Notes: generated from the sequence alone by a model not told the origin. A stretch of 64,000 bases of DNA from Chiloscyllium plagiosum (GCF_004010195.1 NC_057756.1:1278672-1342671); one strand, 5' to 3'. Positions 17,952 to 63,934 are shown, numbered from the stretch's first letter. Translations and numbers: made by a program.

Positions 17952-18475
17952 CTACAGAATGATCAAGGTAGCTTGCTGAAAAGAGCCGACCCAGAGCCTA
18001 AAGATAGGAAAGATCCGCCCAGTGAGGATGGTTTTAAAAGTGTACAGGTGGGAGGAATCCTCTGGGTTGTAGAAGGATACGCGCCCTTCTTCGTAGTTTA
18101 GATAGATGCCCACTTTGCTCAGCTGGACAACGACGATGAGGTTACCAAGAGTACGCACTTGTTGGCCTCCAGGCTTGAAATTCCACAGCATTACAGTCCA
18201 GAAGCCTTCCTGCGGCGAGGGTCTCTTCCACTGGCCTAGAGACACGTGTTGTCTAGCCAGGCCCACACTCCACACCGTGTTGGGGCTCACAGACACGAGC
18301 CAGTACTTACGCCCGCTGGTGTATCCTTCCTTTCCCCATACAGACCATGTATCCGAGTGTTTCTTCCAGAGGTGCGGACCACCTTGCCCAGCAGCGCGAT
18401 CCCAGCGGATGCTGGACCTATCCTTGGACAAGCTGAAGCGGGGATCAGCCGTGTATTCGTCCAGCAAGACGTCCA
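17952..18475 (-). CDS. Terminal exon encoding a B30.2/PRY-SPRY domain (butyrophilin-like or TRIM-type gene)
   Basis: Translation VDVLLDEYTADPRFSLSKD...GKEGYTSGRKYWLV...WSVGLA...GFWTV...KVGIYLNYEEGRVSFYN...HLYTF...IFPIF matches B30.2 motifs. Strong acceptor tttgttttgtctctgcAG ends at 18476, phase 1; TAG stop at 17954-17952. Confidence 0.95.
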
Positions 18476-18604
18476 CTGCAGAGACAAAACAAAGGCGGAG
18501 ACGCCAGGATGAGTGTCCATGCTGCTGAAAGCCTTTCAGAATCTATTGAACAAAATTTTGCACGAGCCAAATCGCTTCGATGAACTCGTTGCCCATAAGA
18601 ATGG

Positions 18605-18926
18605 AGTTGAAAAATGTGGTGCTGGAAAAACACAGCAGGCCAGGCAACATCCGAGGAGCAGGAGAATCGATGTTTAGGGCATACACCCTTCTTCAGGAAT
18701 TTGGCTGGTGTGCCAAGCGGTCTGAGGTAAAAGGTAGGGGGGAGGGAATTTCCCCTACCTTTTATCTCAGCCCGTTTGGCACACCAGCCTCATTCCTGAA
18801 GAAGGGCTTATGCCCGAAATGTCGATTCTCCTGCTCCTCGGATGTTGCCTGGCTTGCTGTGTTTTTCCAGCACCACATTTTTCAACTCTGGCACATTCAA
18901 TCATCTGCAGTCCTCACTTTCTCCAA
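18605..18926. mobile_element. Penelope-like pLTR palindrome in the last intron
   Basis: About 18604-18740 and 18752-18888 are inverted copies. 14-bp TSD gcccataagaatgg at 18591-18604 and 18927-18940. Plus-strand hammerhead motif at 18792-18827. Confidence 0.9.
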
Positions 18927-19725
18927 GCCCATAAGAATGGTAAAGATAGAACCTCTTACTAAATTTAAGAATTAGTTCAGTGTATGGTTTTGATCTCAAG
19001 AATTATGCATCTATGGGCCAAGTGTGGGAAAACGGGATTAGCATAGTGAGGAGTTGTTTTTGCCCGGCGCAACCGGAATAGGGGGAAGGGCTTTTTATGT
19101 GCTGTGCATCTCTCCATTGCTCTAACATTTTACATCAACTCATTTTGTTTTATGTTTTCATTTCACCTTTTATGAATGCATGCTTCCCAATATCAAACAA
19201 AAGAGACCGAATTCTAATTCTACGTGTCAATAACCCTCAGTACGCTTGAATAACGACATCAAACTCATTCAATTATCAAAATTATTAGTTTATTAGAAAT
19301 GCACTCGTGTTCCCTACTCTTTTGGAAGCTTGTCAATTGCCTTGCTAAAAGTTCCGTTTATAATTTTAAACTTAGTTTGTCTCGTTTGGTATAAACTCAT
19401 TGGAGGAAACATTCTCTCTGTATATACTGTCCTGTGCGGTCTAATCCACTGAAATAGCTCATTCCTTTGTGGAAAACTAACTCCCTCAATTACGTCTTGG
19501 TTATTCGTGGAAAGGTGATGGCTTGTCCGTTTTTCATCCCCTGAATGATGTATGGTTTGTACTTCCATCGTTAGAGCGTTCTGATTGTGTTCTCAACATC
19601 ACATTGACTTCTGCCACCGATACCCTTTTCCAGCTGTCTGTCTGTCTGACTGCCTGTCTGCCTGTCTAACTATATGTCTACTCTACGTTTAAAATATTAA
19701 ATGACTTTAACTTCGCCACATTGAA

Positions 19726-20059
19726 CGGCACAGTGGCTCAGTGATTAGCAATGCTGCCTCACAGCGCCAACAACCCGAGTTTCATCCCAGCTTTGGGTGA
19801 CGGTGTAGAGCTTGCAGTTCTCCCAGTGTCAGCGTGGGTTTCCTCCTGGTGCTCCGGTTTCCTCCCTCGGTCCAAAAATGTGTAGGTTACGTGGATTGGC
19901 CATACTAAAATTTTCCATGGTGTTCAGGCATGTGTCCGATAGATGGGTTAGCCATGATGGATATGATAGGTGGCTGGTTCTGGATGGGATGTTCTTCGGA
20001 AGTCCTGCGCGGACTCGATGGACTGGATTATCTCTTTTCTGTAGGGAGTCTATGATTCC
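19726..20059 (+). mobile_element. tRNA-derived SINE (V-SINE/HE1-like)
   Basis: Head cggcacagtggctcagtgattagcaatgctgcctcacagcgcc, core gtgggtttcctcctggtgctccggtttcctccc, tail ctgtagggagtctatgatt. Confidence 0.85.
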
Positions 20060-20591
20060 CTGGGAATTCGAAATATTCATGGGCCAACTCCTGAGTCCTG
20101 TTCTACAATGACTAAACCTTGCTTTTAAATTGCGCCTAGATCTGGCATTAGAAAGAGGTAACAGGCTTTCTCCATACCTCTTATCAACTCGTCTCAGGAG
20201 GTGGTATCTTAATAATATCACTTCATTACTCTAAACTCAACTGAATACACACTCAGCGTGTCTAATCCTTTGTGTTCAGACAGCCAACTATCGCATCCTG
20301 TGATGTAGTGTTGTCTCTTTTGGATTTATCCTGTTCTTCAGGAGAAACAAAATTTCTAGGCTTTTTTTTGTAAAAACAAAGAACTGTTTTCATATTGTGA
20401 GCTTTTCTGCATCTGTTTTATTCTTGGGGAAATCTCTCCTGCGCCTCATCCAAGATCAATGTGTCTATCCCTTTGTGTGATGTACACAACTGGAGTTGAT
20501 GCATCAGTGCATCTTGATAAAAAGGAAAGAATATCACCAAGTTCAAAGACTTTTTTGACATCTTTGTCATATCCTGCCTCCTTTTTCTTAC

Positions 20592-20618
20592 CTTCTGAGG
20601 AAACAATCGTCTTCCATT
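20592..20618 (-). CDS. Micro-exon, 27 nt (EWKTIVSSE), immediately upstream of the B30.2 exon
   Basis: ctatttcccAG|aatggaagacgattgtttcctcagaag|GTaaga; phase 1-1. It joins in frame to give ...EWKTIVSSEVDVLLD, resembling the Trp-containing short exon that precedes B30.2 in butyrophilin and TRIM genes. Confidence 0.9.
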
Positions 20619-22426: not shown

Positions 22427-22453
22427 CTTTTATTTTTATGTTTTCCTTGCAGT
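22427..22453 (-). CDS. Micro-exon, 27 nt (DCKENIKIK)
   Basis: ttgtgttctgcAG|actgcaaggaaaacataaaaataaaag|GTgaga; phase 1-1, open. Confidence 0.85.
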
Positions 22454-22569
22454 CTGCAGAACACAATGAGGAATGGAAAGACAAATTACACAAATGAGTT
22501 AACAGGGAAAATTTGTAACTGGCCAATGACGGTTCATTGTTAAAATAATTAATTTAGTAGGATCAAGAC

Positions 22570-25500
22570 AGAGTCATAGAGATGTACAGTACAGAAACAG
22601 ACCCTTTGGTCCAACCCGTCCATGCCGACCAGATATCCCAATCCAATCTAGTCTCACCTACAAGCACCCGAACCATGTCCATCCAAACCCTTCCTATTCA
22701 TATACCTATCCAGATGCCTTTTAAATGTTGCAATTGTACGAGCATCCACCTCTGCCTCTGCCAGTTCATTCCATACACGTACTAGCCTCTGTGTGAAAAA
22801 GTTGCCCCTTAGGTCTCTTTTATATCTTTCCCCTCTTCCCTTAAACCTATACCTTCTAGTTCTGAATTCCCCCACCCCAGGGAAAAAAAAACTTTGCCTA
22901 TTTATCCTATACATGCCCCTCATGATTTTATAAACTTCCATGACGTGACCGGTCAACCTCCGGCGCTCCAGGGAAAACAGACCCAGCCTATTCAACCTCC
23001 CCCCATAGTTCAAATCCTCCAACACTGGCAACATCCTTGAACATGTTTTCTGAACCCTTTAAAGTTTCACAACGTCCTTCTGATATGAAGGAGACCAGAA
23101 TTACATGCAACATTTCAGAAGTGGCCGAACCAATTTCCTGTACAGTTGCAACGGGACCTTTCAACTCCCCTGTCAATATTCTGACCAATAAAGGAATGCA
23201 TACCGAACTCCTGCTTCACTATCCTATCTACCCGCAATTCCACTTTCAAGGAGCTATGAACCAGCACTCCAAGGTCTCTTTGTTCAGCCACACTCCCTCG
23301 GACCTTACCATTAAGTGTATAAGTCCTGCTAAGATTTGCTTTCCAAAAATGAAGCATCGCACATTTATCTAAATTAAAATCCACCTGCCACTTCTCAGCA
23401 CATTGGCCCATCTGGTCAAGATCCCATTGTAATCTGAGGTAACCTTCTTCACTGCCCATAACCGCTCCAATTTTGTTGTCATCTGCAAACTTACTAACTG
23501 CAATTCGTATGCTCGCATCTAAATCATTTATATAATTGATGAAAAACAGTGGACCCAGCACTGATCGTTGTTGCACTCCACTGGTCACAGACCTCCAGTC
23601 TGAAAGACAACCCTCCACTACCACCCTCTCTCTTCTACCTTTGAGCCAGTTCTGTATCCAAATGGCCAGTTCTCCCTGTATTCCACGAGTTCTAACCTTC
23701 CTTACCCGTCTCCCATGAGGAACCTTGCTGAACGCCTAACTGAAGTTCAAATAGATCACGTCCATAACTCTGTTCTCATCAATCCTCTTTGTTACATTTT
23801 CGAAAAAAAAACCCAATCAAGATTGTGAGACATGATTTTCCACGCACAAAGCTATATTGACTATCCCTAATCAGTCCTTGCCTTTCCAAATACATGTACA
23901 TCCTTCCCCTCAGAATTCCCTTCAACAACTTGTCCACCACCGATGTCAGGCTCACTGGCCTATAGTACCCTGGCTTGTCCTTGTCACCCTTCTTAAACCG
24001 TGGCACCACGTTAGCCAACCTCCAGTTTTCCGGCACCTCACCTGTGAATATTAATAATATCTCCACAAGGGGCCCAGCGATCACTTCCCTTGCTTTAGTT
24101 CTCGGGTACACCTGATCAGGTCCTCGGGATTTGTCCACTTTTATGCGTTTCAAGACATACAGCACTTCCTCCTCTGTAATATGGATATTTTTCAAGATGT
24201 CATCATCTATTTCTCTACATTCTATATCTTTCATGTCCTTTTCCACAGTAAACACTGATGCAAAATACTCATTTAGTATCTCCCCTATCTCCTGCAGTTC
24301 CGCACAAAGGCCATCATGCTGATCATTAAAGGGCCCTATTCTCTCCCGTGGTAACATTTTGTCCTTGATGTATTTGTCAAAACCCTTTGGATTCTCCTTA
24401 ACTCTACTTTCCAAAGATGTCTCATGCCCCGTTTTTGCCCTTCCGATTTCCCTCTTAAATATACTCCTTCTGCCTTTATACACTCCTAAGGATTCATTCG
24501 ATCTGTCTTGTCTATACCCGACTTATGCTTTCTTCTTTTTCTCAACCAAACCCTCATTTTATTTTAGTCATCCAGCATTCCCTACACCTACCAGCGTTTC
24601 CTTTCTCCCTAACAGGATTATACTGTCTCTAGACTCTCGTTATCTCATTTCTGAAGGTTTCCCATTTCCAACCAATCCTGTACCTGTGAACATCTGCCCT
24701 AACCAGCTTTTGAATGTTCTTGTCTAATACCGTGAAAATTAGCCTTCCTCCAATTTAGAACTTCAACTTTTAGATCTGCTCTATCCCTTTCCATCATTAT
24801 TTTAAAACTAATAGAATTATAGTCGCTGGTCCCAAAGTGCTCCCCCACTGACACCTCAGTCACCTGTCCTGCTTTATTTCCAAACAGTAGGGTCAAGGTT
24901 TGCACCTTCTCTAGTAGGTACATCCAAATATTGAATCAGAAAGTTTTCTTGTACACACTTAACAAATTCCTCTCCATCTAAACCCTTAACACTATGGCAG
25001 TCCCAGTCTATGTTTAGAAAGTTAAAAACACCTACCATAACCACCTTATTATTCTGACAGATGCCTGAAATCTTCTTGCAAATACGTTTCTCAATTTACA
25101 CTGTCTGTTAGTGGGTCTATAATACAATCCCAATAAAGTGATCATGCCTTTCTTGTTTCTCACTTCAACCCAAGTAATTTCCCTGGATGTATTTCTGGGA
25201 ATATCCTTCCTCAGTACAGCTGTAATGCTGTCAATAAAGCCAACCATCCCTCCTCTCTTGCCTCCCTTTCTGTCCTTCCTGTATCATTTGTATCCTGGAA
25301 CATTAAGCTGCCAGTCCTGTCCATTCCTGAGCCATGTTTCTGTAACTGCTATGATATCCCAGTCCCATGTTCCTAACCATGCGCTGCATTCACCTGCTTT
25401 CCCTGTTAGGCGTCTTGCACTGAAATAAATGCAGTTTAATTTATCAGTCCTGTTTTGTTCTCTGCGTTCTCTCTGCCTGCCCTGCATGTTTGACTCGATT

Positions 25501-27075
25501 CTTTTCTCAACTGTACCAGTCACAGATTGATCTCTTGCCTCACTATCTCCCTGGGTCTTACCCCATCACCTTAATAGTTTAAAGCCTCCTGACCAGCTCT
25601 AACAAATCTCCCTGCCAGTCTATTATCCCCTTGCAATTCAGGTGAGATTCTAACGATGCAAAAATGAGAACCCTTGTCCCATGCACAAGCTCCTCACCCA
25701 TGCATTCATCTGCTGAATCCTCCTATCCCTACCGTGACCAGCTCGCAGCATCAGAGCAATCCAGATATTACTGGAGCATCTCCTTTTTAACTTCCTGCCT
25801 AACTCTCTGTATTCTCCCTTCAGAATCTCAACATTTTCCCGCGCTATGTTGTTGGTTCCAGTGTATACAATGACCCCTTGCTGGTCCCTCTCCCAACTGA
25901 GAACATTATTCACCCTCTCTGAGACATCCTTAGTCCTGGCACCAGGGAGGTAACACACTATTATGATTTTTCGCTGCTGGCCACAGAAACATCTGTCTGT
26001 GCCTCGGACTAGAAAATCTCCTAACGCAATTGATCTCTTGGAACCCGATGTACCCCTCATTGCATTAGAGCCAGGCTCGATACCAGAAACTAAGCTGTTC
26101 TTGCTACATTCCCTGAGAATTCATCACCCTTACATTTTCCAAAACAGTATAATTGTTTGAAATGGGGATAGCCACAGAAGACTCCTGCACTACCTGTCTT
26201 CCCCTCTCACCTTTCCTGGAGGTAACACATCTATGTGACTGCATCTGCAACTTTTTCCCCTTCCTGTAACTGCCGTCTATCACATCGCCTTGCTCTTGCA
26301 GATTTTTCATTGCCTCTAAATGTCTCTCCAAACGATTAATTTGATCGATAGGATTTGCAACCAATAATATTTATTGCAGATAAAACCCTCAGTCACACGT
26401 AAAATCTTCCTAAACTCACACATCCGACAAGAAGAGCATATCACTTTACTAAAGGCCATTTTTGCTTCTTCCGAGAAACAGACACAGAAAATAGCACTGC
26501 CTTATTCCTCGACGAAACATTGCTCCAAGTAATTTAATACTGATGGCTTCTTTTCTTCATTTTAATCATGAAACATATCTCAATAAAACATATAATCAAG
26601 AAAAAAAACCCACTTTACTCACTACTGCACACTGACTGTAAGGCCACACTTAAAAAAATACTCACTTATTTGTTTCTATGCGGTGACCTCTCCCAAACAG
26701 ACTCCTCCAAGATTAGTTGTGAATTTCATGGTGTTTTAATTTTCCCAGACGCACTCCGATGCCCAGTGAATTGAAACAACAAAGGCAATATCTGCGCAGG
26801 TTCATTGCTGTGTCAGGGAGCAGTGTAGGTTTCTTTTTCTCTTTCCTGTACTGACCTCACCATATGCTGTCTTTGTTTGTTCCTTTCCCTTTTAAAAGTG
26901 CTGTTGTTTTGATTTTGTTTTTCTCCAAATTTCCAGAAAACAATGCAACAGCATATAAAACAGTAAATGCTGCTCCTGGAATTCGAGGAAATCACCTCCA
27001 ACACTTAGAATACTTCAAGAAAGGAGCAATCTGTTACAGCCAGAGCATTTTCCCGTCCTCTATCCCGGATTACCC
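22570..27075 (-). mobile_element. Near full-length, decayed CR1 LINE (about 4.5 kb: 5' UTR, ORF1, ORF2, 3' tail)
   Basis: ORF1 starts at ATG 26459 (MAFSKVICSSC) and includes esterase remnants (ALGDFLVRGTD, VIVYTGTNN). ORF2 has the APE endonuclease motif WDIIAVTETWL and RT motifs (YRPVSLTSVV, SGVQQRSVLGP, SKFADD). There are many frameshifts. Confidence 0.95.
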
Positions 27076-27688: not shown

Positions 27689-27715
27689 CCAGCTGTGTTA
27701 CCTTCTCCTGGAGGT
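27689..27715 (-). CDS. Micro-exon, 27 nt (DLQEKVTQL)
   Basis: ctttcttctttccAG|acctccaggagaaggtaacacagctgg|GTaggt; phase 1-1, heptad-like. Confidence 0.85.
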
Positions 27716-28479
27716 CTGGAAAGAAGAAAGTTTATTTTTCTTTGAATTAATTGGACATGTAATTAGAGCCAAGAAATATTTGGATGAATTTCTCTCCCTA
27801 TTTTTGTTTCCTGAATAACTGAAAAGAAAGTCAATAATACAAATCGTGTGACCTATGATTGGTCAGAAAGAGGAACAATAATGGATAAGGGATCAACTTG
27901 ATCTTTCATTTTTGCAAATCTCTCGTAGGTGATTCCAAAAATGAATAACACAATTCCAGTGAATCTGTTCTGTCCAAGCCCGTTCTGATACTTGTCCATT
28001 TTCCATTAATCAATTAATCATTTTGAGTGAAAGTCCTCCTTTATGTCTTTCTTCTTTGAAGTTGAACTCGTGCTCAAATTATCCAGCAGATATTAAGAAT
28101 ATCTGGAATAATTGAACGATATAGGGTCCTCCTAGGTCACTCAGGCTTCGGTGTATCTGCATTCTGATGTTGCACAGTTAGCAAACATATATGAAAATTA
28201 AAATGTAATCGTGATTCTTCCTGGAATTTTAACTGATGATACCTTCACTTGGCGCCACGTTAGTTGTCAGTTACCCAAGTGTCAATGCTCCGTACAATCT
28301 ATGAATCACTGAGTCATGAAATTTCAGTGTATTTGAATGTTAGACGTGTGCGTGAGCATGTGTATACATGTTATAATGGATGCGCTATATTTTTTTTTAG
28401 TAACTGATGGAATCTTTCCATCCTTTCACATATTCTTTAATGTTAGACAGTTACAAACGACTCAAAAGAAAATCAAAGA

Positions 28480-29960
28480 ACGGAGATTGTGCAAAGTTCA
28501 GGAAGAAATTGGGAGGTTCCTATCAGAAAAATTCCTATCATCGATAACCATGTGGAGGATTGGTGGGTGGCTATTGTTGTGCCGTTATTTAGGAAAGGCT
28601 GTAAGAAGGTGCCTGGGAACTATAGACCTGTGAATCTGACATTATTAGTGAGTAATGTGTTGGTGGTCAGTCTGGAAGTTAGGATTTACAAGCATTTGGA
28701 GAGGCAAAGAACGATTAGGGATAGTCAGTATGGTTTTGTGCGAAATAAGACCTGTCTCACAAACCTAGTTGAGTTTTTAGAGGAATTAACCGAAAAGATT
28801 GATGAGGGCATAGTGATAGACTTTCTTTACTTGGACTTTAGAAAGGCCTTTGATAAAGTTCTGCACGATGGGCTAATTAGTAGAGTTAGATCATATGGCA
28901 TTCAAGATAAGGTTGTTAATTGGATACAAAATTGGCATGGCAGTAGGAGATAGAAGGTTGTGATGGAGGGTTACTTTTCAGACGGGAGGCCTCCACCAAT
29001 GGTGGTCCCCCGGGATTTGTGTTATACCCATTTTTGTTCCTGATTTATATAAATGATTTGGATGAGGGTAGAGGAGGCATGGTTGGTAAGATTGTGGTGA
29101 AAATCAAAATTGGTGATAAAGTGGACAGTGAAGAAGGTTACTTAAGATTACAAAGAGAGCTTGATTAATCGTGTTAATGAGCTGAAGTGTGGCAGATGGA
29201 GTTTAGTTTGAATAAATTCAAGGCATTTTGGTCAAATAAGCAAGGGCAGGATCTAGACAATTAATGGTCTGGCATTGGGTAATTTTGAAGAACAGAGAGA
29301 CGTCTTGGCTCAATTCTTTGAAATTTGCACTAGTGAATAAAGTGTTGGCAGTCATTATGAAAGGTTGGATTTACATGCATTTGGAGAGGCAAAAACAGAT
29401 TAGGGATAGTCAGTATGGTTTTGCGCTTCCGTTCACTGCTGAGACCTTTGAGTATAGGAGTTGGGGTGTCATGCTGAGGTTGTACAGTGTTGGAGTACAG
29501 TGTGCACTTCAGAGGCCCTGTTATAAGAAACATATTAATACAGTGGAGAAGATTCAGAAACGATTTGCCAGGATGTTTCCCGGAATGAGGGCTTGAGTTA
29601 TAAAAGCAGGCTGGATAGGCTAGGACATTTTTCACAGTGTAGAAAGTTGAGGCGTGACCTTACAAACGTTTAAAAAATGACAAGCATTGATAAGCAGAAT
29701 GGCAAATTTCTTTTCCCTAATGTGGAGTTGAAAACTAGGAGGCATATTATTAAGGTGAGAGAAGACGTATCCTAAAAGAGAGATGAGAGGTAACGTTTTT
29801 CACACAGAATGATTAGTGTGTGGAATAAACTGCCAGTGGAAGTCATATATGTAGGTACAGTTACAATGCTTAAAAAGAAATTGGATAATTACATGAATAG
29901 GAAAGGTTTGGAGGGCTGTGCGCCAAACGTAGGCAGGTGGGATAAGTTTAATTTGGGAAC
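28480..29960 (+). mobile_element. CR1 ORF2 RT half and 3' end, decayed
   Basis: ORF 28489..28953 (GNYRPVNLT...QYGFVRNKTCLTNL...YLDFRKAFDKV) and ORF 29264..29596. Confidence 0.9.
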
Positions 29961-31339
29961 ATGGTGACGTGGAATAGTGTGGTGGATGTGGTAGTTCAGG
30001 GAGAGTTTCCATGTTACTGATGGTTATGTCTGCAGGAAGTGTGTTTGATTGCAAATTCTATCAGATTGCATTGATCAGTTAGAGCAGCATTTAGAGGCAA
30101 TAAGAAATTTCCAAGAGCTACGGGGTGTAATGGATGGCAGTTATAGGAAGGGAGAAACGCTGCAGATGCAGTCAGGTAGATGGGTAAACTGCAGGAAAGT
30201 AGGAGGGGAAGGTAGGTAGTGCAGGAGACATCTGTGGCTATCCCCATTTCAAACAAGGATGCTGTTTTGGAAAATGTAGGGGGTGACAGACTCTCAGGAG
30301 AATGTAGCACGAACAGCCAAGTTTCTGGTATAGAGACTGTCACTCATGTAATGAGGATTGCATCGGATTCCAAGCGATCGATTGTGATAGGAGACTGTCT
30401 GGTCAGAGGTACAGATGGATATTTCTGCGGCTATCAGTGAAAAATCAGAGTGTACTGTTGCCTCCCTGGTGTCAGGATCAAGGATATCTCAGAGAGCGTA
30501 CAGAATGTTCTTAAATGGGAGACGGACCAGCAGGAGGTCATTGTACACATTAGACATAATGACAAAGGATGGGAATAGGTTGGGATTCTGAAGGGAGAAT
30601 ATAGAGAGTTAGGCAGGAAGTTAAATAAGAAATCCTCGAGGATAGTAATACCTGGATTAATCACAGCGCTACGATGTATTGATGGTAGGAATAGGAGGAG
30701 AGAGCAGGAGAATGTGTGGTTGAGGAGCTGGTGCAAGGGAGAAGGGTTCACATTTTTGGATCAATGGAATCTCTTCTGGGGTAGAAGTGACCTGTACAAG
30801 AAGGATGGATTGTACCTGAATTGGAACGGCAAAAATATACTGGCAGGGAGTTTTGCTAGATCTGCTCGGGGGAATTTAAACTAGTAAGATGGGGGAGGAG
30901 AATCCAGGGAAATAGTGAGGAAAGAGATCAATCTGAAACTGGTGCAACTGGGAAAAAGAGCGGGTAAAACTATCAGGGCAGGCAGGAACAAAGCAGAGAA
31001 CAAGGTAGGGCTAATAAATAAAGTTGCATTTACTTGAATGCAGGAGGTCTAACAAGGTAGGCAGATGAACGGAGGGCATGGTTAGGAACATGGGACTGCG
31101 ATATCATTGCAATTACAGAAGTGTGGCTCAGGGATGAACAGGACTGGCAGCTCAATGTTCCAGGATACGCATGCTGTAGGTAGGATAGAATGGGGGCAAA
31201 AGAGGAGGGAGAGTGGCGCTTTTGAGAAGGAATAGCATTACTGCTGTACGTAGGGAGGATATTCTTGGGAATATATCCAGGGAAGTTATTTGGGTGGAAC
31301 TAACAAATAAAAAAAAAAGGATGGTCACATTATTGCCCA

Positions 31340-33195
31340 GTTTGATTGACCAGTTGCACTACTGGACAAGGAAGACATCACAGCTGTGCTGAAGGAGGAC
31401 GCTACGGAAGAGTCGAACAGTGAGGCAATATGGGCAGAGTCAGAAATGTGAAGGGTGCAGTAACAATGTTGGAATTGTACTCCAGGCCTCCCAATAGTGA
31501 ACGTGAGATAGAGATACAAATATGTAGAGAGAGCATAGAAAGATGTACGAACGACAGGGTAGTGGTGATAGGAGATTTCAATTTTCCCAACATTGACTGG
31601 AATTCACTTAGTGTTAAAGGTCTGCTTGGAGCAGCATTTGTAAGGAACATCCAGGAGTATGTAAGTAGTCCAAAAGGGAAGGGGCCCTACTGGACCTGAT
31701 GTTACGAAATGAGCACGGCCATGTGGTTAAGCTTGCAGTGGGGGATTACTTTGTGAATAGTGATCACAATTCCTTAAGTTTTAGAATGCTTATGGACAAA
31801 GGTGAGAGTGGTGCGAAAGGAAGAATGCTAAATTGGGGGAAGGCCAACTATACCAAAATTGGCACAAGCTGTGGAATGTAGATTGGGAATAGCTGTTTGA
31901 AAATAAATCCACATGCGATATGTGGGAGGCTTTTAAAAAAAGAAGTTAATTATGGTTCAGGAAATATATGTTCCTGTGAAAAAGAGGGGTAGAAATGGCA
32001 AGGTTAGGGAACCACGAATGACAGGTGAAATTGTGAGATTAGCTAAGAGGCGAAAAGATGCGTACATAATGTCTAAGCGAAGGAATACAGACGAAGCTTT
32101 GCAAGGATATTAGAAATGTTGGACCAATCTGAAATGAGGAATTAAGAGGGCTAAAAGTGGTCATGAGATATCCTTAGTGAACGGGGTTAACGAAAACCCA
32201 AAGCTTTTTATTCATAAATAAGGAGCAAGAGGATACCTCGGGAAAGGGTTGACCCATTCAAGGTAAAAGAAGGAAAGATATGTATGGAGTCAGATAAAAT
32301 GATTGAGATTGTTGATGAGTACTTTGTTTTGGTATTCACGAAGGAGTGGGACATGACGGATGTTGAGGTTTGGGATCGATCTTTGATTACTCTTGGTCAA
32401 GTAGGCATAAGGAGGAAAGATGTGTTGTGTATTCTAACAGACATCGAGGTGGACAAGTCCCCAGGTCCGGATGGGATCTATCTCAGGTTTCTGTGGGAAG
32501 TGAGAGAGAAAATAGCTGGGGCTTTAACAGCATCATCTTTGCAGCATCATCGAAAACGGGGAAGGTCCCTGAGGACTGGAGAATTGTTAATATTGTTCCT
32601 TGTTTAAGAAGGGTAGCAAGGATAATCTAGGTAATTACAGACTTGTAAACCTGACGTCAGTGGTAGGGAAACTACTGGAGAAGATACTAAGGGATAGGAT
32701 ATGTATCCATTTGGAAGTAAATCGGCCTATCAGTGATAGGCAGCATGGTTTTATGCAGGGAAGGCCATGTTTAACAAACTTAATAGAATTCTTTTAAGTG
32801 GTGACAAAGATGATTGATGAGGGGAGGAAAGTAAATGTCATATACCTGAACTTTACTAAGTCATTTGATAAGATTTCCTATGGTATGCTGATGAAGAAGA
32901 TAATGTCGCATGGGGTCCAGGGTGTTCTCGCTAGATGGATAGAGAACTGGTTGAGCAACAGGGGAGAGAGATTAGTGGTGGAAGGGAGAATCTCAAAATG
33001 GGGACCTATGAGCAGTGGAGTCCCACAGGGATTCGTGCTGGGACCACTGTTGTTTGCGACATACATACATGATTTGGAGGATGCAAATTCAGAGCAAACT
33101 GTACAGTAAATTGAAAAGTCCTGGGGAAAATTATGTACATAGAGATCTGGGTGTTCAGGTCCATTGCTGTAATCCTATTTGTTCTTTCTTCTTTG
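31340..33195 (+). mobile_element. Nested CR1 of a different subfamily (endonuclease-RT, internally deleted)
   Basis: ORFs 31430..31699 (VVVIGDFNFPNIDW), 32600..32797 and 32798..33109 (SGVPQGFVLGPLLF); attattg is present on both sides. Confidence 0.8.
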
Positions 33196-34079
33196 TTATT
33201 ATTGGGATTATATTATAGACGCCCTAACAGTCACCGGGAAATCGAGAAACAAATTTGTAAGGAGACTTCAGTCATCTGTAAGAATAATAGGGTTTTTCTG
33301 GTGGGCGATTTTAACATTTCAACCATTGACTGGGACTGCCATAGCGTTAAGTGCTTATGTGGAGAAGAACCTGTTAAGTGTGTACAAGAAAATTCTCTGA
33401 TTCAGTATATGGATGTACCTACTATAGAAGGTGGAAAAATCTATCTACTCTTGGGAAATAAGACAGGACAGGTGGCTGAGGTGTCACTGGGGGAGCACAT
33501 TGGGGCCAGGGACCATAATTCTATTCGTTTCAAAATAGTGATGGAAAAGGATAGACCGGATCTAAAAGTGGAAGTTCTAAATTTTGATCGTGTTAGGCAA
33601 GACCTTTCAGAAGATGATTGGGGGCAGATGTTCGCAGGTAAAGGGGCAGCTGGAAAATGGGAAGCCTTCAAAAATGAGGTAACGACAGTCCAGAGTCAGT
33701 ATATTCCTGTTATGGTGAAAGAAAAGTTCGGGTGGTGTAGGGAATGCTGGATTCCAGGAAAAATTGAGGTTTTGGTTTAAAAAACGAAGGAAGCATATGT
33801 CAAGTATAGACAATAGTGTATAAAGGCAGGAGGAGTATATTTAAGATGGAAATCAGGAGGGCAAAAAGGGGACATGAGACAGCTTTAGGAAGTAGGGTTA
33901 AGGAAAATCCAAAGAGATTTTATAATCACATTAAGGACAAAAGGGTAACTGGAGAGAGAATAGAGCCCCTCAAAGATCAATAAGGCAGCCTTTGTGTTGA
34001 GCTGCAGGAGATGGGAGAGATGCACAAACGAGTATTTTGCATCTGTATTAAATGTGGACAAGAAATTGGGACATGCAGT

Positions 34080-34352
34080 GGGCAGCACGGTGGCACAGTG
34101 GTTAGCACAGTTTCCTCCCAGCGCCAGCGACCCGGGTTCAATTCCTGCTGCAACCAGCTATCTGTGTGGAGTTTGCTCCGGTTTCCTCCCACAGTCCAAA
34201 AATGTGCAGGTCAGGTGAATTGGTCATGCTAAATTGCCCGTAGTGATAGGTGAAGGGTAAATGTTGGGGAATGAGTCTGGGTGGGTTACCTTTCGTAGAG
34301 CTGGTTGGGCGAAAGGACATGTTTCCATACTGTAGGGAATCTAATCTAATCA
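34080..34352 (+). mobile_element. tRNA-derived SINE (V-SINE/HE1-like)
   Basis: A box tggcacagtgg, B box ggttcaattcc, core gctccggtttcctcccacagtccaaa, tail aatctaatctaatc. Confidence 0.9.
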
Positions 34353-36196: not shown

Positions 36197-36220
36197 CTGA
36201 CAACCTGACGTTGCACTCAA
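36197..36220 (-). CDS. Micro-exon, 24 nt (xECNVRLS)
   Basis: ccttgttcctatcttttTAG|ttgagtgcaacgtcaggttgtcag|GTaatg; phase 1-1, open. Confidence 0.75.
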
Positions 36221-39305: not shown

Positions 39306-39332
39306 TGTATTTCTGTTGGAGGAGGACGAGCT
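39306..39332 (-). CDS. Micro-exon, 27 nt (ELVLLQQKY)
   Basis: Strong acceptor tttctattttattttcAG|agctcgtcctcctccaacagaaataca|GTgaag; the donor is weak; phase 1-1. Confidence 0.55.
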
Positions 39333-40353: not shown

Positions 40354-40377
40354 CTGCTTCTTCTTGTGGGCTAATGA
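40354..40377 (-). CDS. Micro-exon, 24 nt (VISPQEEA)
   Basis: poly-T-gcAG|tcattagcccacaagaagaagcag|GTaatc; phase 1-1, open. Confidence 0.8.
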
Positions 40378-46802: not shown

Positions 46803-46829
46803 CTATAGTTTTTTTTCGCAATTGTTCCT
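46803..46829 (-). CDS. Micro-exon, 27 nt (EEQLRKKTI)
   Basis: aatctgttttacAG|aggaacaattgcgaaaaaaaactatag|GTaact; phase 1-1. Confidence 0.8.
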   Translation of the reverse strand, partial: RNNCEKKL

Positions 46830-47114: not shown

Positions 47115-47150
47115 CTTTCTCTTGTAGATCTTGTTTTAGGGTTTCGAGTT
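47115..47150 (-). CDS. Micro-exon, 36 nt (ELETLKQDLQEK)
   Basis: actttctttttcAG|aactcgaaaccctaaaacaagatctacaagagaaag|GTaatg; phase 1-1, clear heptad pattern. Confidence 0.88.
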
Positions 47151-49169
47151 CTGAAAAAGAAAGTGACAGCCTACTTATGGAGTTTCCTTCAAGATCTTTG
47201 CATTTGCGAGCTTTCACAACAAATTATGCACTTTTCAAGTCTACTTATGCTTGGAGGATATGAAATAGGGAAGCCAGTTGATAACAGCAACACCCAGTAA
47301 TCATGTGACAATTACCAATTCGCCCACTCTCATTTTCTAAGATATAGATGATAGGTAGTACCATTAATAATTACTATTCGTGTAAAATTATGCCTCTTGG
47401 TTTGAAAGTTACCAATTATACGACAGCACAACAATGCAAAATACTGCAGAAACTTAACAGGTCTAGCAGCCTCTATAGATATACAAATAATGCGGCGATT
47501 TTATTCTTTAATCTTCATCAGGTTAGAGAGTAGATGGTATATCTTGTGAACCATTTCATTGGAAAGATTAATCTCAAATAATATAAACGACCTTGTCACA
47601 CATCATTGCAAAACGAAATAGCTACCTACAGAACTGATGCTTATGTCAAGACCTTTGGAGCTACAAATATAATTGAAGTATATGATGGATGGCACACGTC
47701 AGTCATTGCGAGCAATTGGAGAATCTATTTGTCTTCTGCTTCGAATAGAGAAGGTTAAACTGATTTGATATATGTTACAAGAGATGGAGCAGTTTAGATA
47801 TGGCGAATGCTGGTGGGTGGCTGTAGGAAGAAAGTAAGATAATTGATAAAACAATGCTTTGCGAGCTAAAGGTGGATTGGACTTCATAGTCTCGCAGTAA
47901 TCTACTTCTACACTTATCCATTGTAAAATACCCTTCCATAATCAAAACGAGCCACAAAATGGTATAGAAAGCATAGAATTAAAAAATAACTTCTGAGAAC
48001 CGGAGAAAGAAAAAAAAAGAGAAAATTCATCAACGAGGCTAGCAGAAATCAGTTGTCATATGCCAAACATCCGTTAAATAATATTTGGTGTCCAAATTAA
48101 CATAAAGAATAGGGAAGTGAAATGTGTGAGTTCACAAAGAGTGAGAAAGGGAGAGAGAATATTGAATATCTCATAAAAATGGCGGTAATGATCTTAATTT
48201 CTGCATCGCACTCTTCTGGCTGTTAATGAATATAGCAATTGGAGATTGATGTATTGCTGGATAAATGGTCCACAACAGTTGCATTGGTATGCTATATTTT
48301 CAGTGTATTAGGAGGGGCAAGGAGTTGTGTGTTATTTCAGAAGATCTGAACATCACTGGTTGTGCCATCATTTCTTGTCCATCTGTGCTTGCAGTTCAGA
48401 TCGTGTTGATGAGTCAACTTCTTGAATTGCTGCAGTACATTTGAAATGGAAACAAACAGTGTTGTTGGAGAGGAGATCCAGGATGATCAAAAACGTTTTC
48501 TTATCCATGTTTCAGTAACATTCTATGCTCCCTGATTTATATTATTTCAATTTGCATTCAGAAAATTAGTTCCTCCACTACAGGAACTGAAACATTTCTA
48601 AATGACTGCAAAAAAATACAAATTTATTTATTGCCCTTATAACTTTCATTGTCAAGCATGCCATTCTATGTTTCTTTTCTGCTGCTTACTTCATCAACAG
48701 ACATGCATTGTTTTTTGACTTGCAGTTTTAAAGAGTGATCAATTTCCGATCAAATAATTACTATGCTTGGAAGTCTTTCAAGGAGAGCATTTATTCCCTT
48801 TTCTGTGCCAAATGGCCAACTTCGAACTTTGAAATTCAGGTCTCAATTCTTGAATCTTTAGTCAGGACTTACACCTGTTCACATGCATTGTCTCACTTTT
48901 TATTTCAGAATTACACACGCTTCAATTATTCAATTGTTTTATCTGGTACTTCTAATTTCTAGGTAAAATTAGTATTTGTTCAACCAACAGCAACCTCAAA
49001 ATCCCCACAATAAGGATCGTGTCTTGCATTTAATTCTATTGATCTTAACCTGATCTCTCTCTAATGCAGTTCCATCTTTCTGATGTTAACTAAACAGAAC
49101 TGTACATGGAACCCCTCAAAGGTTGTTGCCTGATTCTAAACTCTTCACACCAATGTCCATCAACACCTG

Positions 49170-49195
49170 TGCATGTGCGTGTGTGTGTGTTTGTT

Positions 49196-49241
<46 letters not shown>

Positions 49242-49297
49242 ACGTGAGAGAGAGAGAGAGAGAGAGAGAGAAAGAAGGAGAGAGAGAGAGAGAGAGT
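49170..49297 (+). repeat. Compound (TG)n/(GA)n microsatellite
   Basis: Directly visible dinucleotide runs. Confidence 0.95.
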
Positions 49298-49299
49298 GT

Positions 49300-50310
49300 A
49301 GCGAAATCAAAGTTAACCTTTTGGGCCCAGTGACCTCTTCAGTACTGATGGAAGCTTGGAAAAAGCTTGCTTTATGCAGGAGATAGGGTGTGTTGAGGGG
49401 ACAAATGATGAACGATAGATGGAGATAGAGCTCAAAGAGACAGAATAACAATTGGACAGATAAAGGAGCAGATAACGGCCAGCTGAGGAGAATGAATATC
49501 TGCTAACGGGGCGTATTTGTAACTAACAACGTGTTGTGTGGAAGGACAAAACATACAAGCAATGGTGTGTCGAGGTTTGATTAAAGACATGGGAGAAAAT
49601 GCTTTAAGCCTTGAAATTGTTGTTGAGTCCAGAAAGCTATTGAGATCCCAAGCATAAAATAAGGAGCTGTTCTTCTAGCTTGTGCTGAGCTGCACTGGAA
49701 CACAATGGCAAGTCTGAGACAGAAATGTTGGCCAGAGAACAAGGTGGCATCTTGAAGTGACAGGCAACTGGATGCTCAGGATCTTTTTAACGGACAGAAT
49801 GTAAGTGTCGTGCAAAGTGATAGCCTGGTCTATGCTCCATTTTCTTCAAACAACATTGTGAGAAGCGAATGCATTAGACTAGGTTGAGTTTTGTGCAGGT
49901 AAAACACTACATCACTTCGAAGGTGTGTTTGAGCTCTTGTAAACTGAGGAGTCAGGAAGTAAATGTGCAGGTGTTGCACCCTTTTTTGGTTGCAGCAGAA
50001 GGTATTATGAAACTGTGGAGGAGGGCCGAGCATGCTAAGAGTGAAGCAGGAGTGAATCAGGATGTCAGGGAAGGAGCAACCTTTGTGGAAGACTAACAAG
50101 GTAGAGGAGGGAAATATATATCTGGTAGACTTGACTGAGGGCCTATCAACTATGGTGGTGTGAAATCTTGATTTCCGAAAGAAGGTGGACATTTTGCAGT
50201 CCTCTTGTCGAAGTTGGCATCATTATAGCAGAAGCATAACATAACGGAGATGGAAGAAGTGGGAGAATGGAATAGATGCTTTACAGGAAGCGATTTTATT
50301 CCTGTTTGGT
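49300..50310 (-). mobile_element. Decayed Penelope-like element (Cys-rich linker/GIY-YIG region and pLTR)
   Basis: Minus-strand remnants MSTFFRK...NTFCCNQKR resemble PLE endonuclease-region sequence. The pLTR carries a decayed hammerhead ctgaagaggtcactgggcccaaaaggttaac at about 49312-49342. Confidence 0.7.
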
Positions 50311-51245: not shown

Positions 51246-51272
51246 CATGCAGTTGGGAAGCTTGCTTTTCTT
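51246..51272 (-). CDS. Micro-exon, 27 nt (EEKQASQLH)
   Basis: cttttattttttgtAG|aagaaaagcaagcttcccaactgcatg|GTaaga; phase 1-1. Confidence 0.85.
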
Positions 51273-52281: not shown

Positions 52282-52308
52282 CGTTCTGCTTTTCAAAGAG
52301 TTTTCCTT
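52282..52308 (-). CDS. Micro-exon, 27 nt (EGKLFEKQN)
   Basis: aattttaataaacAG|aaggaaaactctttgaaaagcagaacg|GTaagt; consensus donor, pyrimidine-poor acceptor; phase 1-1. Confidence 0.75.
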
Positions 52309-52732: not shown

Positions 52733-52768
52733 CTGCATATTCAAGATCGTCTCTTAGCTTTGCCATCT
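52733..52768 (-). CDS. Micro-exon, 36 nt (EMAKLRDDLEYA)
   Basis: tctaatcttcccataccAG|agatggcaaagctaagagacgatcttgaatatgcag|GTgagc; phase 1-1, heptad pattern. Confidence 0.88.
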
Positions 52769-55249: not shown

Positions 55250-55442
55250 ATGGGAACAGCAGAAGACTATTCAGTATAAAATATGCTCCACCAATCAATT
55301 AGATCAATGCTGAACTCTCAGCTCGAGTTTCCTCCTTTATACCCCGTTAATCTTAATTCCCTTACTGATTAGAAATCTCTCCATTTCAGTCTTGAATATT
55401 TGCATTCTTTCTGCGGTAAATAATTCCACATTCCCATTAGTC

Positions 55443-55477
<35 letters not shown>

Positions 55478-55750: not shown

Positions 55751-56333
55751 TAAAGCTTACATCCACATCAAGATCATCCTTTGGGCCATAATCCGATTAT
55801 TGTTTGATATCCTCGCTTGTGCTTCTCCTTCAGTAGTCCAGTTTCCTTTCCCTCATAGTTAGGTAATTTTGATCATGATAATCCTACACTCGGGTTTTAT
55901 TTGTCTCAGGCCATTTAAATTAAAAACAAATGGCCGACGTGTTGCCTCGTCAACTACAACAATTGCCAACACCTTATTAATTCTGGAATAAGGGTTGATT
56001 TTTAGCACACTAGGAGAAATTAATGGTCTTAACATTATATATTTTGTCAAAGTGCACAAAATTATGGTGATCAATCTCGAGACGTTTTGCAATGATTTTA
56101 TAATATTTCTTTTCATATGATCAGATGTAAATAATTGCTTCCCAGAATGCTTCACAATGTATTTTTCTGAGAAAGGTTTCTGAATATACTCATCTTCGAA
56201 TACAGCTTAGAATTACAATTTGTCAAAGAACTTACAAATTTGAAGACCACATTTCCGATTATGCCTGCAATACCTTTACAAACCTGAGTTATTTCAAAAT
56301 ATTTATGTTATCATAGGCAGATTTAAGAAATTG

Positions 56334-56543
56334 GGAGTGTGGTGCTGGAAAAGCACAGCTGGCCAGTCAGCATCTGACGTGCAGGAGAATCGACGTTTTG
56401 GGCAAAATCCCTTAACCAGAATGAAGGTCTTTTGCCCAAAATGTAGATTTTGCGGCTTCTCGGATGCTTCTCGCATGCAGTGCTTTTCCAGCACCACAGT
56501 CTCGACTCTCAACTCCAGCATTTGCAGTGCTCACTTTCTCCCT
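56334..56543. mobile_element. Penelope-like pLTR inverted pair
   Basis: 14-bp TSD gatttaagaaattg at 56320-56333 and 56544-56557; both hammerhead motifs are decayed. Confidence 0.85.
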
Positions 56544-56920
56544 GATTTAAGAAATTGTTTGGGAAGCATCAGAAACAACGTGCAATAAAATGTTTGACAG
56601 CAAGCACACTTGTATTTTTGATAGGATTAAGTTCAGTTTGTATATGACTTTTCTGCAAATCAGCTGAATCAAAGGTCTTTTTCTTTGTGAGAACATTCTG
56701 TGAGCATCTCATCAAAAGGCCTAATATGGGAGCAAAATGCTTTCGCTTCTGTCAATCTAATATAAGACCAAAATGAAAATAAGAGTTGTTAGTACATAAT
56801 CTATCAACCAACATCAATGCAGAAAGAGTCTCTTGTCTCCCTGCCTATGTTCGTCAGTTGTGCATGTTTGTACAGCATTAACATAATTTCCATAACCCCC
56901 TTTTCAAAGGATATGTTTAC

Positions 56921-56947
56921 CTTTCTCTTTCCGAATGATTTCTTCTG
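56921..56947 (-). CDS. Micro-exon, 27 nt (AEEIIRKEK); acceptor position uncertain
   Basis: ctcaactaaaAG|cagaagaaatcattcggaaagagaaag|GTaaac. A tandem AAGCAG acceptor would give 24 nt, also in frame. The polypyrimidine tract is weak. Confidence 0.6.
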
Positions 56948-60585: not shown

Positions 60586-60621
60586 CTGCTGCTTCCAATT
60601 GGGTCTGCAGTTTTGTTGTGT
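60586..60621 (-). CDS. Micro-exon, 36 nt (DTTKLQTQLEAA)
   Basis: ctaattcgccgtttcAG|acacaacaaaactgcagacccaattggaagcagcag|GTaagg; phase 1-1. Confidence 0.85.
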
Positions 60622-61855: not shown

Positions 61856-62116
61856 ATGAGTATAGAGTCTAAACTAAAAAGCCTGGACTTTGGGGAAAGA
61901 GCTCATAAGATAACTAATGTTTTCTGTCGAGTTTGGTGGCTTGGGTGAAACTGCCGTCGGGATAATGCCAAGAAGCTTTCAGTACAAATAAACTAGTTAA
62001 CAATCCATGGACAAAAGTTCAAATTCCAGAATGTTAACTGGTGCAGGTTAAATTTAAAAATTAATCCCTCTTGAACGAAGAATCTCGTGAGGCCAAACTG
62101 CCCCATGACAGTGTTA

Positions 62117-62620
62117 AATAGAACATAGAACATAGAACAATACAGCACAGAACAGGCCCTTCGGCCCACGATGTTGTGCCGAACATTTGTCCTAGCTTAA
62201 GCACCCATCCATGCACCTATCCAATTGCCACTTAAAGGTCACCAAAGATTCTGACTCTATCACTCCCACAGGCAGCGCATTCCATGCCCCCACCACTCTC
62301 TGGGTAAAGAACCCACCCCTGACATCTCCCCTATACCTTCCACCCTTCACCTTAAATTTATGTCCCCTTGTAACACTCTGTTGTACCCGGGGAAAAAGTT
62401 TCTGACTGTCTACTCTATCTATTCCTCTGATCATCTTATAAACCTCTATCAAGTCACCCCTCATCCTTCGCCGTTCCAATGAGAAAAGGCCTAGCACTCT
62501 CAACCTATCCTCGTACGACCTATTCTCCATTCCAGGCAACATCCTGGTAAATCTTCTCTGCACCCTCTCCAAAGCTTCCACATCTTTCCTAAAGTGAGGC
62601 GACCAGAACTGCACACACTA
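62117..62620 (-). mobile_element. Young 5'-truncated CR1 with uninterrupted ORF2 C-terminus
   Basis: ORF 62192..62614 (140 aa, QFWSPHFRKDVEALERVQRRFTRMLPG...WNALP) has no stops; clean (ttctatg)n tail; CpGs retained. Confidence 0.95.
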
Positions 62621-62649
62621 TCTATAGATTGATTTCTTTTCAAAAATTC

Positions 62650-63060
62650 ACTGTTTTGCACATCACTGGCTGACCAGCATTTATTGCCCATTTCTAGTTA
62701 GTTTTGAAAAGGTGATGGTGCGATGCCTTCCTAAACTGCTGCAGTTCAAATACTTTAGATTGACCCAGAATGCCGTTTTGAAGAGCATCACAGGTCTTTG
62801 ACCAGGTGATAGTGAAGGATAGGAGGTTTCCTATCTTGCAGGGGATCTTGCAGATGGTGATGCCCATAGCGAACTGCTGTCTGTGCTTCTGTATGAAACC
62901 GTCGTGGGTTTGGAAGGTGCTGTCTAAGGATCTTTGGTAAATTTCTTCAATTCATCTTTCACAGTACTACCGCTGAGCGTTGGTAGTAGAGGCAGTACAT
63001 GCTGGTGTTTTAGGTGCCAAAGATGCAAGATGCTTTGTCCCCAGTGGTGTAAATGAATGT
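62650..63060 (-). mobile_element. 3' end of the second LINE family
   Basis: cactggctgaccagcatttattgccca...gtgggtttggaaggtgctgtctaagga matches 42885-43180. Confidence 0.75.
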
Positions 63061-63149
63061 TGTTTGGACCTGCAACCCATCCATTGAGAGTTCTTCTTAC
63101 GAAGATCTATGCATTTCTGACTCTGCCGCTCAGCCCTGGACCAATTGGT

Positions 63150-63440
63150 TATATTCGCTGCTTGAGTTTGAATGTCCGAGTTGAAGTCCATTTTCAGGAC
63201 TTGAACACGAAGGAAAATATGTTAAGGGAATTCTGTCTGTTGAAAATTGCTTTTCATAAGATATTACAAAGCCAGATGCTGACGTTACTATCGGTAGAAA
63301 TATTTCATCCAATTGTACTGTTCCAAAGAAGAGCAGAGGAGCTTGCTCCTATCACGAATTAATAATTTTCAATTATGTCACATAAGTAGTCCTAGTGTTT
63401 TAAAACAAAAGTCATAACCATTGTCATTGATCGCTGGTAG
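63150..63440 (+). mobile_element. Highly decayed ancient SINE, possibly Deu-domain type (AmnSINE/SacSINE-like)
   Basis: gttgaagtccattttcaggacttgaacac...ttccaaagaagagcagaggag resembles my recollection of the Deu-SINE consensus; not verified by alignment. Confidence 0.45.
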
Positions 63441-63907
63441 TTCCCTCTTTAACGTTTTTTCAGATTTTCCTGAACACTACTTCCCAGTATTAGGCATAAT
63501 ATTCTATCTGAGGCCTGATATAGAACTTCTAACATCACAGTTTCATTTCTATGTTTTGATATTCCCTGCCATCTTTCGAAATGCCGGTGCCACGTGAGTT
63601 TTTACTTTGTTTAAAGTTGTTTATGAAATAGTCCATAAAAATTGCTTATTTGGACAGTAGGATTTGTTTGTTCATTTGGAACATCCAGAGGCTTGCTATG
63701 CTTTTGACAGTGAAATGCTTTGCTTCAAGTTGAATTTTGAAGACTTGCTAAAGAATGTAAACCAAACTGATCTATTCCAGGAATGTGTCCAAAACTACAT
63801 ACTATAAGAGTTAGCACTATCATTTATTTCAATATCATATATTTACTTTCAATTAAAATATGCAGTCACACCGTCCACTAAAACAAATGATGGCTCCACT
63901 TGCTTAC

Positions 63908-63934
63908 CTCCAGTTTTGCATTTATCCTCCAATT
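63908..63934 (-). CDS. Micro-exon, 27 nt (xLEDKCKTG), most 5' exon visible in the window
   Basis: atatttgatcttctAG|aattggaggataaatgcaaaactggag|GTaagc; phase 1-1. Confidence 0.82.

Follow-up and report, generated by a model that had tools for sequence, protein, structure and literature searches.

What kind of gene places a B30.2 domain behind a long run of exons of only 24 to 36 nucleotides (nt)? The question is raised by a 64,000-nt stretch of the Chiloscyllium plagiosum genome (contig C47:1278672-1342671, here called the window), in which a preliminary description had proposed a hidden, butyrophilin-like immune gene. A further 290 kb of upstream sequence was read and is numbered in continued window coordinates, giving a total of 354 kb including the window, or 336 kb upstream of the B30.2 exon. 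The window probably represents the 3' part of a minus-strand gene with an array of 66 micro-exons, belonging to a cartilaginous-fish family that combines a coiled coil with a B30.2 domain and in which no RING, B-box, immunoglobulin (Ig) or transmembrane (TM) domain was found. By its sequence features, this family is neither butyrophilin nor classical TRIM; it is so far undescribed and only auto-annotated, and the micro-exon array at this locus is unusually large.

The terminal coding exon encodes the PRY/SPRY (B30.2) region and occupies positions 17952-18475 of the minus strand, with the stop codon at 17952-17954 and a phase-1 acceptor at 18475/18476. Its SPRY part is recognised by Pfam (3.5e-15), and the PRY part aligns but remains under the Pfam threshold. 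The exon begins at 18475, behind the strong acceptor tctctgcag and with TG as its first letters, and not at 18542, where the open reading frame (ORF) opens. It is intact and matches itself with 100% identity at C47:1296626-1297144. The 354 kb yielded neither a further B30.2 exon nor any different terminal coding exon.

Upstream of this exon, a fresh scan for segments bounded by AG and GT recovered all 14 minus-strand micro-exons of the preliminary description with unchanged coordinates. In the 5' to 3' direction of the gene their lengths are 27, 36, 27, 36, 27, 27, 36, 27, 24, 27, 24, 27, 27 and 27 nt, and all are in phase 1. AG precedes and GT follows each of them, the donor carries a purine at +3 in every case, and the final base is G in 13 of the 14. 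When joined in phase 1 to 17952-18475, they yield a frame of 306 amino acids (aa) with a sole, terminal stop, in agreement with the claim that the segments read into the B30.2 exon without interruption. The suspicion that some exons had been overlooked was likewise justified, as at least one was missed. This 27-nt exon at 45169-45195 (acceptor ttttcag, donor gtatgt) has a counterpart in a skate protein (P0161, Leucoraja erinacea), with which it shares six of nine residues in the corresponding block. In total, the window contains 15 micro-exons in addition to the terminal exon.

All of these exons lie on the minus strand. The last one before the B30.2 exon (20592-20618, 27 nt, phase 1-1, acceptor cccag, donor gtaaga) aligns to the block of P0161 just ahead of the B30.2 domain of that protein. 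Further upstream, the 27-nt exon at 22427-22453 (ctgcag, gtgaga) has a DCK start in common with the catshark protein P0024, to which the exons at 27689-27715 (27 nt; ttccag, gtaggt) and 36197-36220 (24 nt; ttttag, gtaatg) are also aligned. The exon at 39306-39332 (27 nt; ttttcag, gtgaag) aligns to the EL..L.QKY block of P0024, and is followed upstream by a second 24-nt exon at 40354-40377 (tttgcag, gtaatc). Beyond the added exon at 45169-45195, two classes become apparent: a 27-nt class of 9 aa with the consensus E-E-K-L-x-x-K-x-K, and a 36-nt class of 12 aa with the consensus E-[IL]-E-K-L-K-x-x-L-Q-D-[LT]. The exons at 46803-46829 (27-nt class) and 47115-47150 (36-nt class) have AG/GT borders and their class consensus, and both align to P0161. 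AG/GT borders and class consensus are also seen at 51246-51272, 52282-52308 and 56921-56947 in the 27-nt class, the last having the weakest acceptor (ctaaaag), and at 52733-52768 and 60586-60621 in the 36-nt class. The most upstream micro-exon within the window, at 63908-63934 (27 nt), has AG/GT borders, and the array goes on upstream of it.

The preliminary description had stated that an equal wealth of such segments on the plus strand or in shuffled sequence would weaken its reading, and neither was found to match the minus-strand count. Between 18543 and 64000, the minus strand carries nine segments that combine an open phase-1 frame, a good splice score and a high content of E, K, Q, L, D, R and A, compared with one to three in the five other strand and frame combinations. 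In 100 first-order Markov simulations of the same interval, the mean was 1.46 and the maximum five. The splice score is our own crude consensus table and not a trained model; absolute counts are rough, and the strand contrast is independent of the score. Over the first 264 kb, the good-splice segments in phase 1 of the minus strand include 45 with a length of 27 nt and 34 with a length of 36 nt. Coil-like examples among good-splice segments number 54 in this strand and phase, against 7 to 15 in each of the other combinations.

The array is unbroken at the window edge, the next exons being located at 64582-64608 (27 nt) and 65019-65054 (36 nt). The most upstream micro-exon is a 36-nt exon at 315117-315152, which places the end of the array at about 315152 (C47:1593823), some 250 kb past the window. 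From 315152 to 20592, 66 intact micro-exons are spread over 297 kb, comprising 29 of 36 nt, 35 of 27 nt and two of 24 nt. Each of the 66 has an open frame, AG/GT borders and phase 1-1, and no micro-exon-like segments were found at 315-354 kb, the last 39 kb examined. The coiled-coil stalk of at least 133 aa postulated in front of the B30.2 domain is thereby supported, while its length had been set too low, the coil being far longer, with a possible 678 aa.

Class profiles agree with this picture. All 29 exons of the 36-nt class, three of them new, score above the best plus-strand hit, and the profiles contribute three 36-nt exons and one 27-nt exon with weaker donors. An excess of decayed copies is not seen: at a profile score above 10, the minus strand has 35 hits, 28 of them intact exons, and the remaining seven equal the plus-strand count of seven. 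Scanned without splice sites, the profile of the 27-nt class has too little power, with 115 plus-strand hits at a score above 8. A 30-place exon pattern was unable to map the array genome-wide (8147 and 7909 matches versus 8808 and 9127 in the control).

The arrangement of the two classes is regular. A 36-nt exon and a 27-nt exon together encode 21 aa, equivalent to three heptads, in which positions 2, 5, 9, 12 and 16 are hydrophobic and position 19 is a conserved lysine. The classes alternate in 49 of 58 neighbouring pairs, while 10,000 shuffles gave a mean of 29.5 and a maximum of 43. The entropy at codon positions 1, 2 and 3 is 1.42, 1.03 and 1.67 in the 36-nt class and 1.31, 1.22 and 1.58 in the 27-nt class. 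It is lowest at the second and highest at the third position, which indicates constraint at the protein level in exactly the phase-1 frame. Furthermore, a block of three exons (36 nt, 27 nt, then a 27-nt exon starting with E-L-E-D) is present in two copies separated by 18 kb, 65019/64582/63908 and 47115/46803/45169. The similarity of the two blocks suggests a duplication inside the array. The same 36/27/ELED-type block directly precedes the terminal part of the skate protein.

The closest proteins are found in cartilaginous fishes. A HMMER search with the B30.2 exon returned 2742 hits, none with more than 50% identity, and the nearest single-domain hits are predicted cartilaginous-fish proteins. 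Their names stem from the automatic annotation of the sources, namely TRIM39-like (Scyliorhinus canicula, XP_038668997 and XP_038672308), zinc-binding protein A33-like (Narcine bancroftii, XP_069775385), TRIM58 (Callorhinchus milii, XP_042191567, earlier butyrophilin subfamily 2 member A2) and TRIM69-like (Leucoraja erinacea, XP_055510696). When 42 B30.2 domains, including those of 21 TRIM-type and 10 Ig-bearing proteins, are placed in a quick maximum-likelihood tree, the window B30.2 domain and six cartilaginous-fish proteins form one clade of seven rows with a Shimodaira–Hasegawa-like approximate likelihood ratio test (SH-aLRT) value of 100 and a stem length of 1.3. The 21 TRIM-type and 10 Ig-bearing domains are intermixed elsewhere in the tree, outside this clade.

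Five of the six cartilaginous-fish members have sequence ahead of the B30.2 domain, and it consists of coil only, with no Ig, TM, RING or B-box. The relatives with an N-terminal part start with methionine and run straight into the coil. In a Pfam scan of the relatives P0023, P0024 and P0031, only SPRY was found, and their coil gave no TRIM_CC match. Residues 1-17 of the skate protein P0161 are hydrophobic, whereas the ray, catshark and elephant-shark relatives begin with polar coil. Isoforms of the relatives from three species differ by cassettes of 9, 9, 9, 7 and 6 aa (27, 21 and 18 nt). All ten residues at the cassette boundaries are D, E, A or G and correspond to codons with an initial G, as would be expected if the exons of the relatives are also in phase 1 and end in G.

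The coil itself also shows similarity. With the B30.2 domain excluded, the 15-exon coil of the window scored 115 against skate P0161 (shuffles 44.7±7.5, maximum 75) and 77 against catshark P0024 (shuffles 40.8±6.4, maximum 67), and in both cases none of 500 shuffles reached the score. The exons 47115, 46803 and 45169 share 20 of 30 residues with P0161, in which only about 10 coil blocks of the micro-exon type are present. A homologous coil of small frame-symmetric cassettes is accordingly seen in the clade through coil similarity in two of five relatives and through the isoform cassettes. The relatives and the window gene have the B30.2 clade, the coil-only part ahead of the B30.2 domain, small cassettes (seen in the relatives as isoform differences) and, in skate and catshark, the aligned coil blocks in common. 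They differ in that the B30.2 domains are only 36-50% identical and the relatives comprise 185-460 aa, compared with a possible 852 aa here. The expectation that annotation pipelines easily miss such exons holds in part: the protein libraries yielded no protein with more than 50% identity to the window B30.2 domain, but NCBI models of the relatives do include 27-nt cassettes. No description of a cartilaginous-fish family of coil and B30.2, or of a 27/36-nt exon array, was found in open-access papers and bioRxiv.

The domains expected of a butyrophilin or a TRIM were sought over the whole 354 kb. The Pfam scans covered 108 ORFs of the window (at least 85 aa, both strands), 195 minus-strand ORFs at 64-312 kb (at least 78 aa) and 150 minus-strand ORFs at 312-354 kb (at least 53 aa). 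Shorter ORFs, very divergent exons, three ORFs at the locus borders (one of them a LINE, or long interspersed nuclear element, reverse transcriptase by eye), N gaps and DNA beyond 354 kb lie outside these scans. Within them, no Ig, RING or B-box was found, only SPRY and the retroelement families RVT_1, Exo_endo_phos, RNase H and GDSL-type esterase. Searching the 354 kb by tblastn with 151-163 B30.2 proteins, many of them bearing Ig or RING/B-box domains, detected only the B30.2 exon and pieces of retroelements, and a strict Ig-motif expression had no hit in the first 164 kb. The preliminary description had suggested looking past position 64000 for IgV/IgC exons as opposed to RING/B-box exons; neither type appears within 354 kb. 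Its assignment to the butyrophilins is not supported, in view of the failure of these scans to find an Ig exon and of a B30.2 domain that falls outside the butyrophilin domains and into the cartilaginous-fish clade.

Each of the known architectures resembles the locus in part. Butyrophilins are described with a few heptad repeats followed by B30.2 (PMC4046983; PMC12841164), and with tiny phase-1 heptad exons before a single B30.2 exon (PMC4046983); variable heptad numbers are described for butyrophilins across jawed vertebrates, including cartilaginous fishes (PMC12841164). The B30.2 domain is reported as typically encoded by one exon and as having moved between gene families by exon shuffling (PMC2657112). 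Like BTN and BTNL genes, the locus has heptad micro-exons directly 5' of a single-exon B30.2. In contrast, butyrophilins possess IgV, IgC and a transmembrane segment, while no Ig exon was found here and the B30.2 domain belongs to a separate lineage. The order of coiled coil and PRY/SPRY is shared with the B30.2-bearing TRIM proteins, which, unlike the locus as far as scanned, have a RING and a B-box, and the coil of the scanned relatives lacks a TRIM_CC match. The TRIM coiled coil is not known to be built from micro-exons.

Chicken BG genes provide the third comparison. According to PMC4046983, the tiny exons encoding their cytoplasmic heptad coil measure 21 nt or, in some cases, 24 nt and number 13-36, varying from gene to gene, and BG proteins are described there as spanning the membrane and possessing an IgV domain but lacking B30.2. 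A long heptad coil spread over many successive tiny exons is thus common to BG genes and the locus. The locus differs in its 36+27-nt pair unit, in its up to 66 exons, in the retained B30.2 and in the lack of a detected Ig exon. Measured against a BG-type tail (21/24-nt exons, IgV, no B30.2), the exons are of 27 and 36 nt with only two of 24 nt, B30.2 is present and IgV was not found.

The chain of all 66 exons would comprise 678 coil residues with one proline and 11 glycines, and with E, K and L at 17, 16 and 15%; together with the B30.2 domain, the possible product has 852 aa. In such a protein, the helices would pair into a rod-like homo-oligomer holding the B30.2 domains, which are predicted to bind ligands, at its end. 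The rod would resemble the module of coiled coil and B30.2 in TRIM proteins without the ubiquitin-ligase part, and by analogy with TRIMs an oligomeric rod presenting B30.2 domains is the likely logic. A homo-oligomer prediction with two copies of residues 1-205 of P0023 gave scores of 0.28, 0.33 and 0.29, on both sides of the mark of 0.32 and hence favouring neither outcome. Every exon is frame-symmetric, so inclusion or skipping would alter the rod length without breaking the frame, each exon contributing an increment of 9 or 12 residues. The isoforms of the relatives show length cassettes of the proposed kind. At full length, the rod of about 680 residues is estimated to reach the order of 100 nm, provided that it is helical throughout.

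Several observations weigh against the assignment of the locus to a coil and B30.2 gene with a 66-exon array. There is no transcript evidence: four sequencing runs with the B30.2 exon behave as genomic DNA, their contigs being colinear across introns and across the 18475 acceptor, and a single-cell RNA run with 0 reads is no test. Neither a start codon nor a first exon could be assigned, none of 17 candidates running from an ATG to a phase-1 donor at 312-354 kb being convincing. The splice scoring rests on a crude consensus score. Annotated relatives are much shorter, at 185-460 aa, and a weak word-index search with the skate protein as query revealed no relative longer than 517 aa among proteins of 518-2000 aa; among those of 162-517 aa, it retrieved only the query itself. 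For three of the five relatives, the coil similarity is not significant, as the score was reached by 7 (P0023), 55 (P0031) and 29 (P0026) of 500 shuffles. The hydrophobic N-terminus of the skate protein could be a signal or an anchor, and could thus indicate a membrane anchor in some family members. Finally, the 66-exon chain has nine sites at which two exons of one class adjoin, which would throw the heptads out of register, and over the chain as a whole the Fourier power at 3.5 residues (0.19) equals the shuffle mean (0.19). In our view, this flat global periodicity arises because the register is displaced wherever an exon lacks its partner; N gaps may conceal some of these partners, or the filters may have removed them. 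In local 28-residue windows, the hydrophobic occupancy of the a and d positions is 0.65 versus 0.50.

For the gene's 5' end, some candidate elements are present. The most upstream 36-nt exon (315117-315152) contains an in-frame ATG that may serve as an optional start. ATG-initiated hydrophobic exons with a phase-1 donor amount to five candidates over 354 kb, none of them convincing, in a scan restricted to exons of this type. Windows resembling CpG islands are located at 331751-333250, 339501-340250 and 344751-345500 (observed/expected CpG 0.67-0.85, GC 0.50-0.66). Lying 16-30 kb upstream of where the micro-exons begin, they are possible promoters of the coil and B30.2 gene or of a neighbour.

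The strongest competitor accepts the coil and B30.2 gene as real but short. It would use some 15-25 exons nearest the B30.2 exon, while those at about 70-315 kb would represent one or more separate coil genes, alternative-promoter cassettes or rare cassettes, and no single 850-aa product would exist. This reading is quite plausible, though we place it somewhat below an even chance. It draws on the short annotated relatives, on the roughly 10 blocks of the skate protein, on the failure of the admittedly weak search to find a longer relative, on the repeated three-exon block, which hints at duplicated units, and on CpG-rich windows inside the array at about 192.8, 217.0 and 280.3 kb. Set against this are the uniformity of strand, phase, classes and alternation over 297 kb without a break at the window edge, the lack of a second B30.2 or other terminal coding exon in 354 kb, and the fact that no start exon was found inside the array. 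That the whole 297-kb array forms one transcription unit has near-even odds, because the annotated relatives have 185-460 aa and no long one was found, which is weak evidence. The further proposal that all of about 66 micro-exons belong to one transcription unit whose 9- and 12-residue cassettes are combined to carry B30.2 receptors on rods of many lengths, as a splice-tunable molecular ruler, is doubtful and is put forward tentatively. Its bolder corollary, equally doubtful when taken jointly with the ruler, is that the butyrophilin tail of heptad exons and B30.2 came from a donor similar to the coil and B30.2 module, which both holocephalans and elasmobranchs possess.

The remaining explanations are far less probable. 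A classical TRIM of RING, B-box, coiled coil and B30.2, with its RING/B-box exon beyond the 354 kb examined, would suit the TRIM39-like, TRIM58, TRIM69-like and A33-like names of the relatives and the many TRIMs among the nearest B30.2 hits outside the family. It is nevertheless very improbable given that the scans of the 354 kb gave no RING or B-box match, that the three Pfam-scanned relatives have SPRY only, that the window clade is separate from the TRIM B30.2 domains and that no micro-exon-like segments were found at 315-354 kb. The original view of a butyrophilin-like membrane protein, with IgV/IgC and transmembrane exons upstream of the coil, is very improbable. The tiny phase-1 heptad exons before a single B30.2 exon do correspond to the butyrophilin tail layout as described in PMC4046983, and both the older name of the elephant-shark relative and the hydrophobic N-terminal stretch of the skate relative point in the same direction. 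However, neither V-set nor C2-set nor any other Ig hit occurs in 443 minus-strand ORFs over 354 kb or in the plus-strand ORFs of the window, tblastn with Ig-bearing B30.2 proteins finds no Ig exon, the relatives begin with methionine and coil without Ig or TM, and the window B30.2 domain is not grouped with those of butyrophilins. Lowest of all is the likelihood that the segments are a decaying pseudogene array or a chance pattern and not expressed coding exons. Such an origin would agree with the missing RNA evidence, with the lack of any library protein more than 50% identical to the B30.2 domain and with the large introns full of retroelements. It is opposed by the open frames and AG/GT borders of 66 of 66 segments, their strand- and phase-specific excess, the coding-like entropy pattern, the absence of an excess of broken copies, the intact B30.2 exon and a coil homologous to annotated skate and catshark proteins.

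LINE fragments fill both the introns and the 3' flank, at 15-596 (minus strand), 23118-26120 (minus strand) and 28447-35155 (plus strand), with Pfam matches to RVT_1, Exo_endo_phos_2 and GDSL-type esterase; the upstream introns are alike. A short dispersed repeat is present in both orientations at 7962-7997, 12242-12277, 17722-17997 and 56244-56585, its translation showing a W-K-S-A-A-G-Q-like motif followed by E-Q/P-E. It is probably an element similar to a short interspersed nuclear element (SINE), and one copy abuts the stop codon of the B30.2 exon. Long open frames on the plus strand at 1630-2552, 5171-5680 and 6050-6663 share a recurring peptide motif rich in H, T, N and P without a Pfam hit, and are possibly a degenerate repeat. 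A GT/GA-type microsatellite at 49090-49500 has translations with C-V-C-V and R-E-R-E runs, and no tandem repeats scoring at least 200 were detected in the window. In the genome as a whole, B30.2-like exons account for at least 148 matches at E≤1e-10, mostly on contig C37 at about 9-34 Mb, representing a large expansion of B30.2 genes. The two nearest paralogues of the window B30.2 exon are located on its own contig at C47:994524-995030 (plus strand, 42% identity) and C47:4577507-4578007 (plus strand, 41% identity).

The locus lends itself well to stress-testing gene finders as well as aligners capable of handling micro-exons. Its family is labelled automatically as TRIM or butyrophilin, although RING, B-box and Ig were not found in it. 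The principle of tiny heptad exons has been described in runs in chicken BG genes and, with only a few such exons, in butyrophilins; it appears here in a different B30.2 family of cartilaginous fish and with a two-exon unit of 21 residues. Its possible scale of 66 exons over about 300 kb surpasses the 13-36 exons reported for BG genes in PMC4046983. The gene thereby offers a concrete and easily testable case of a coiled-coil rod whose length could be governed by frame-symmetric micro-exons.

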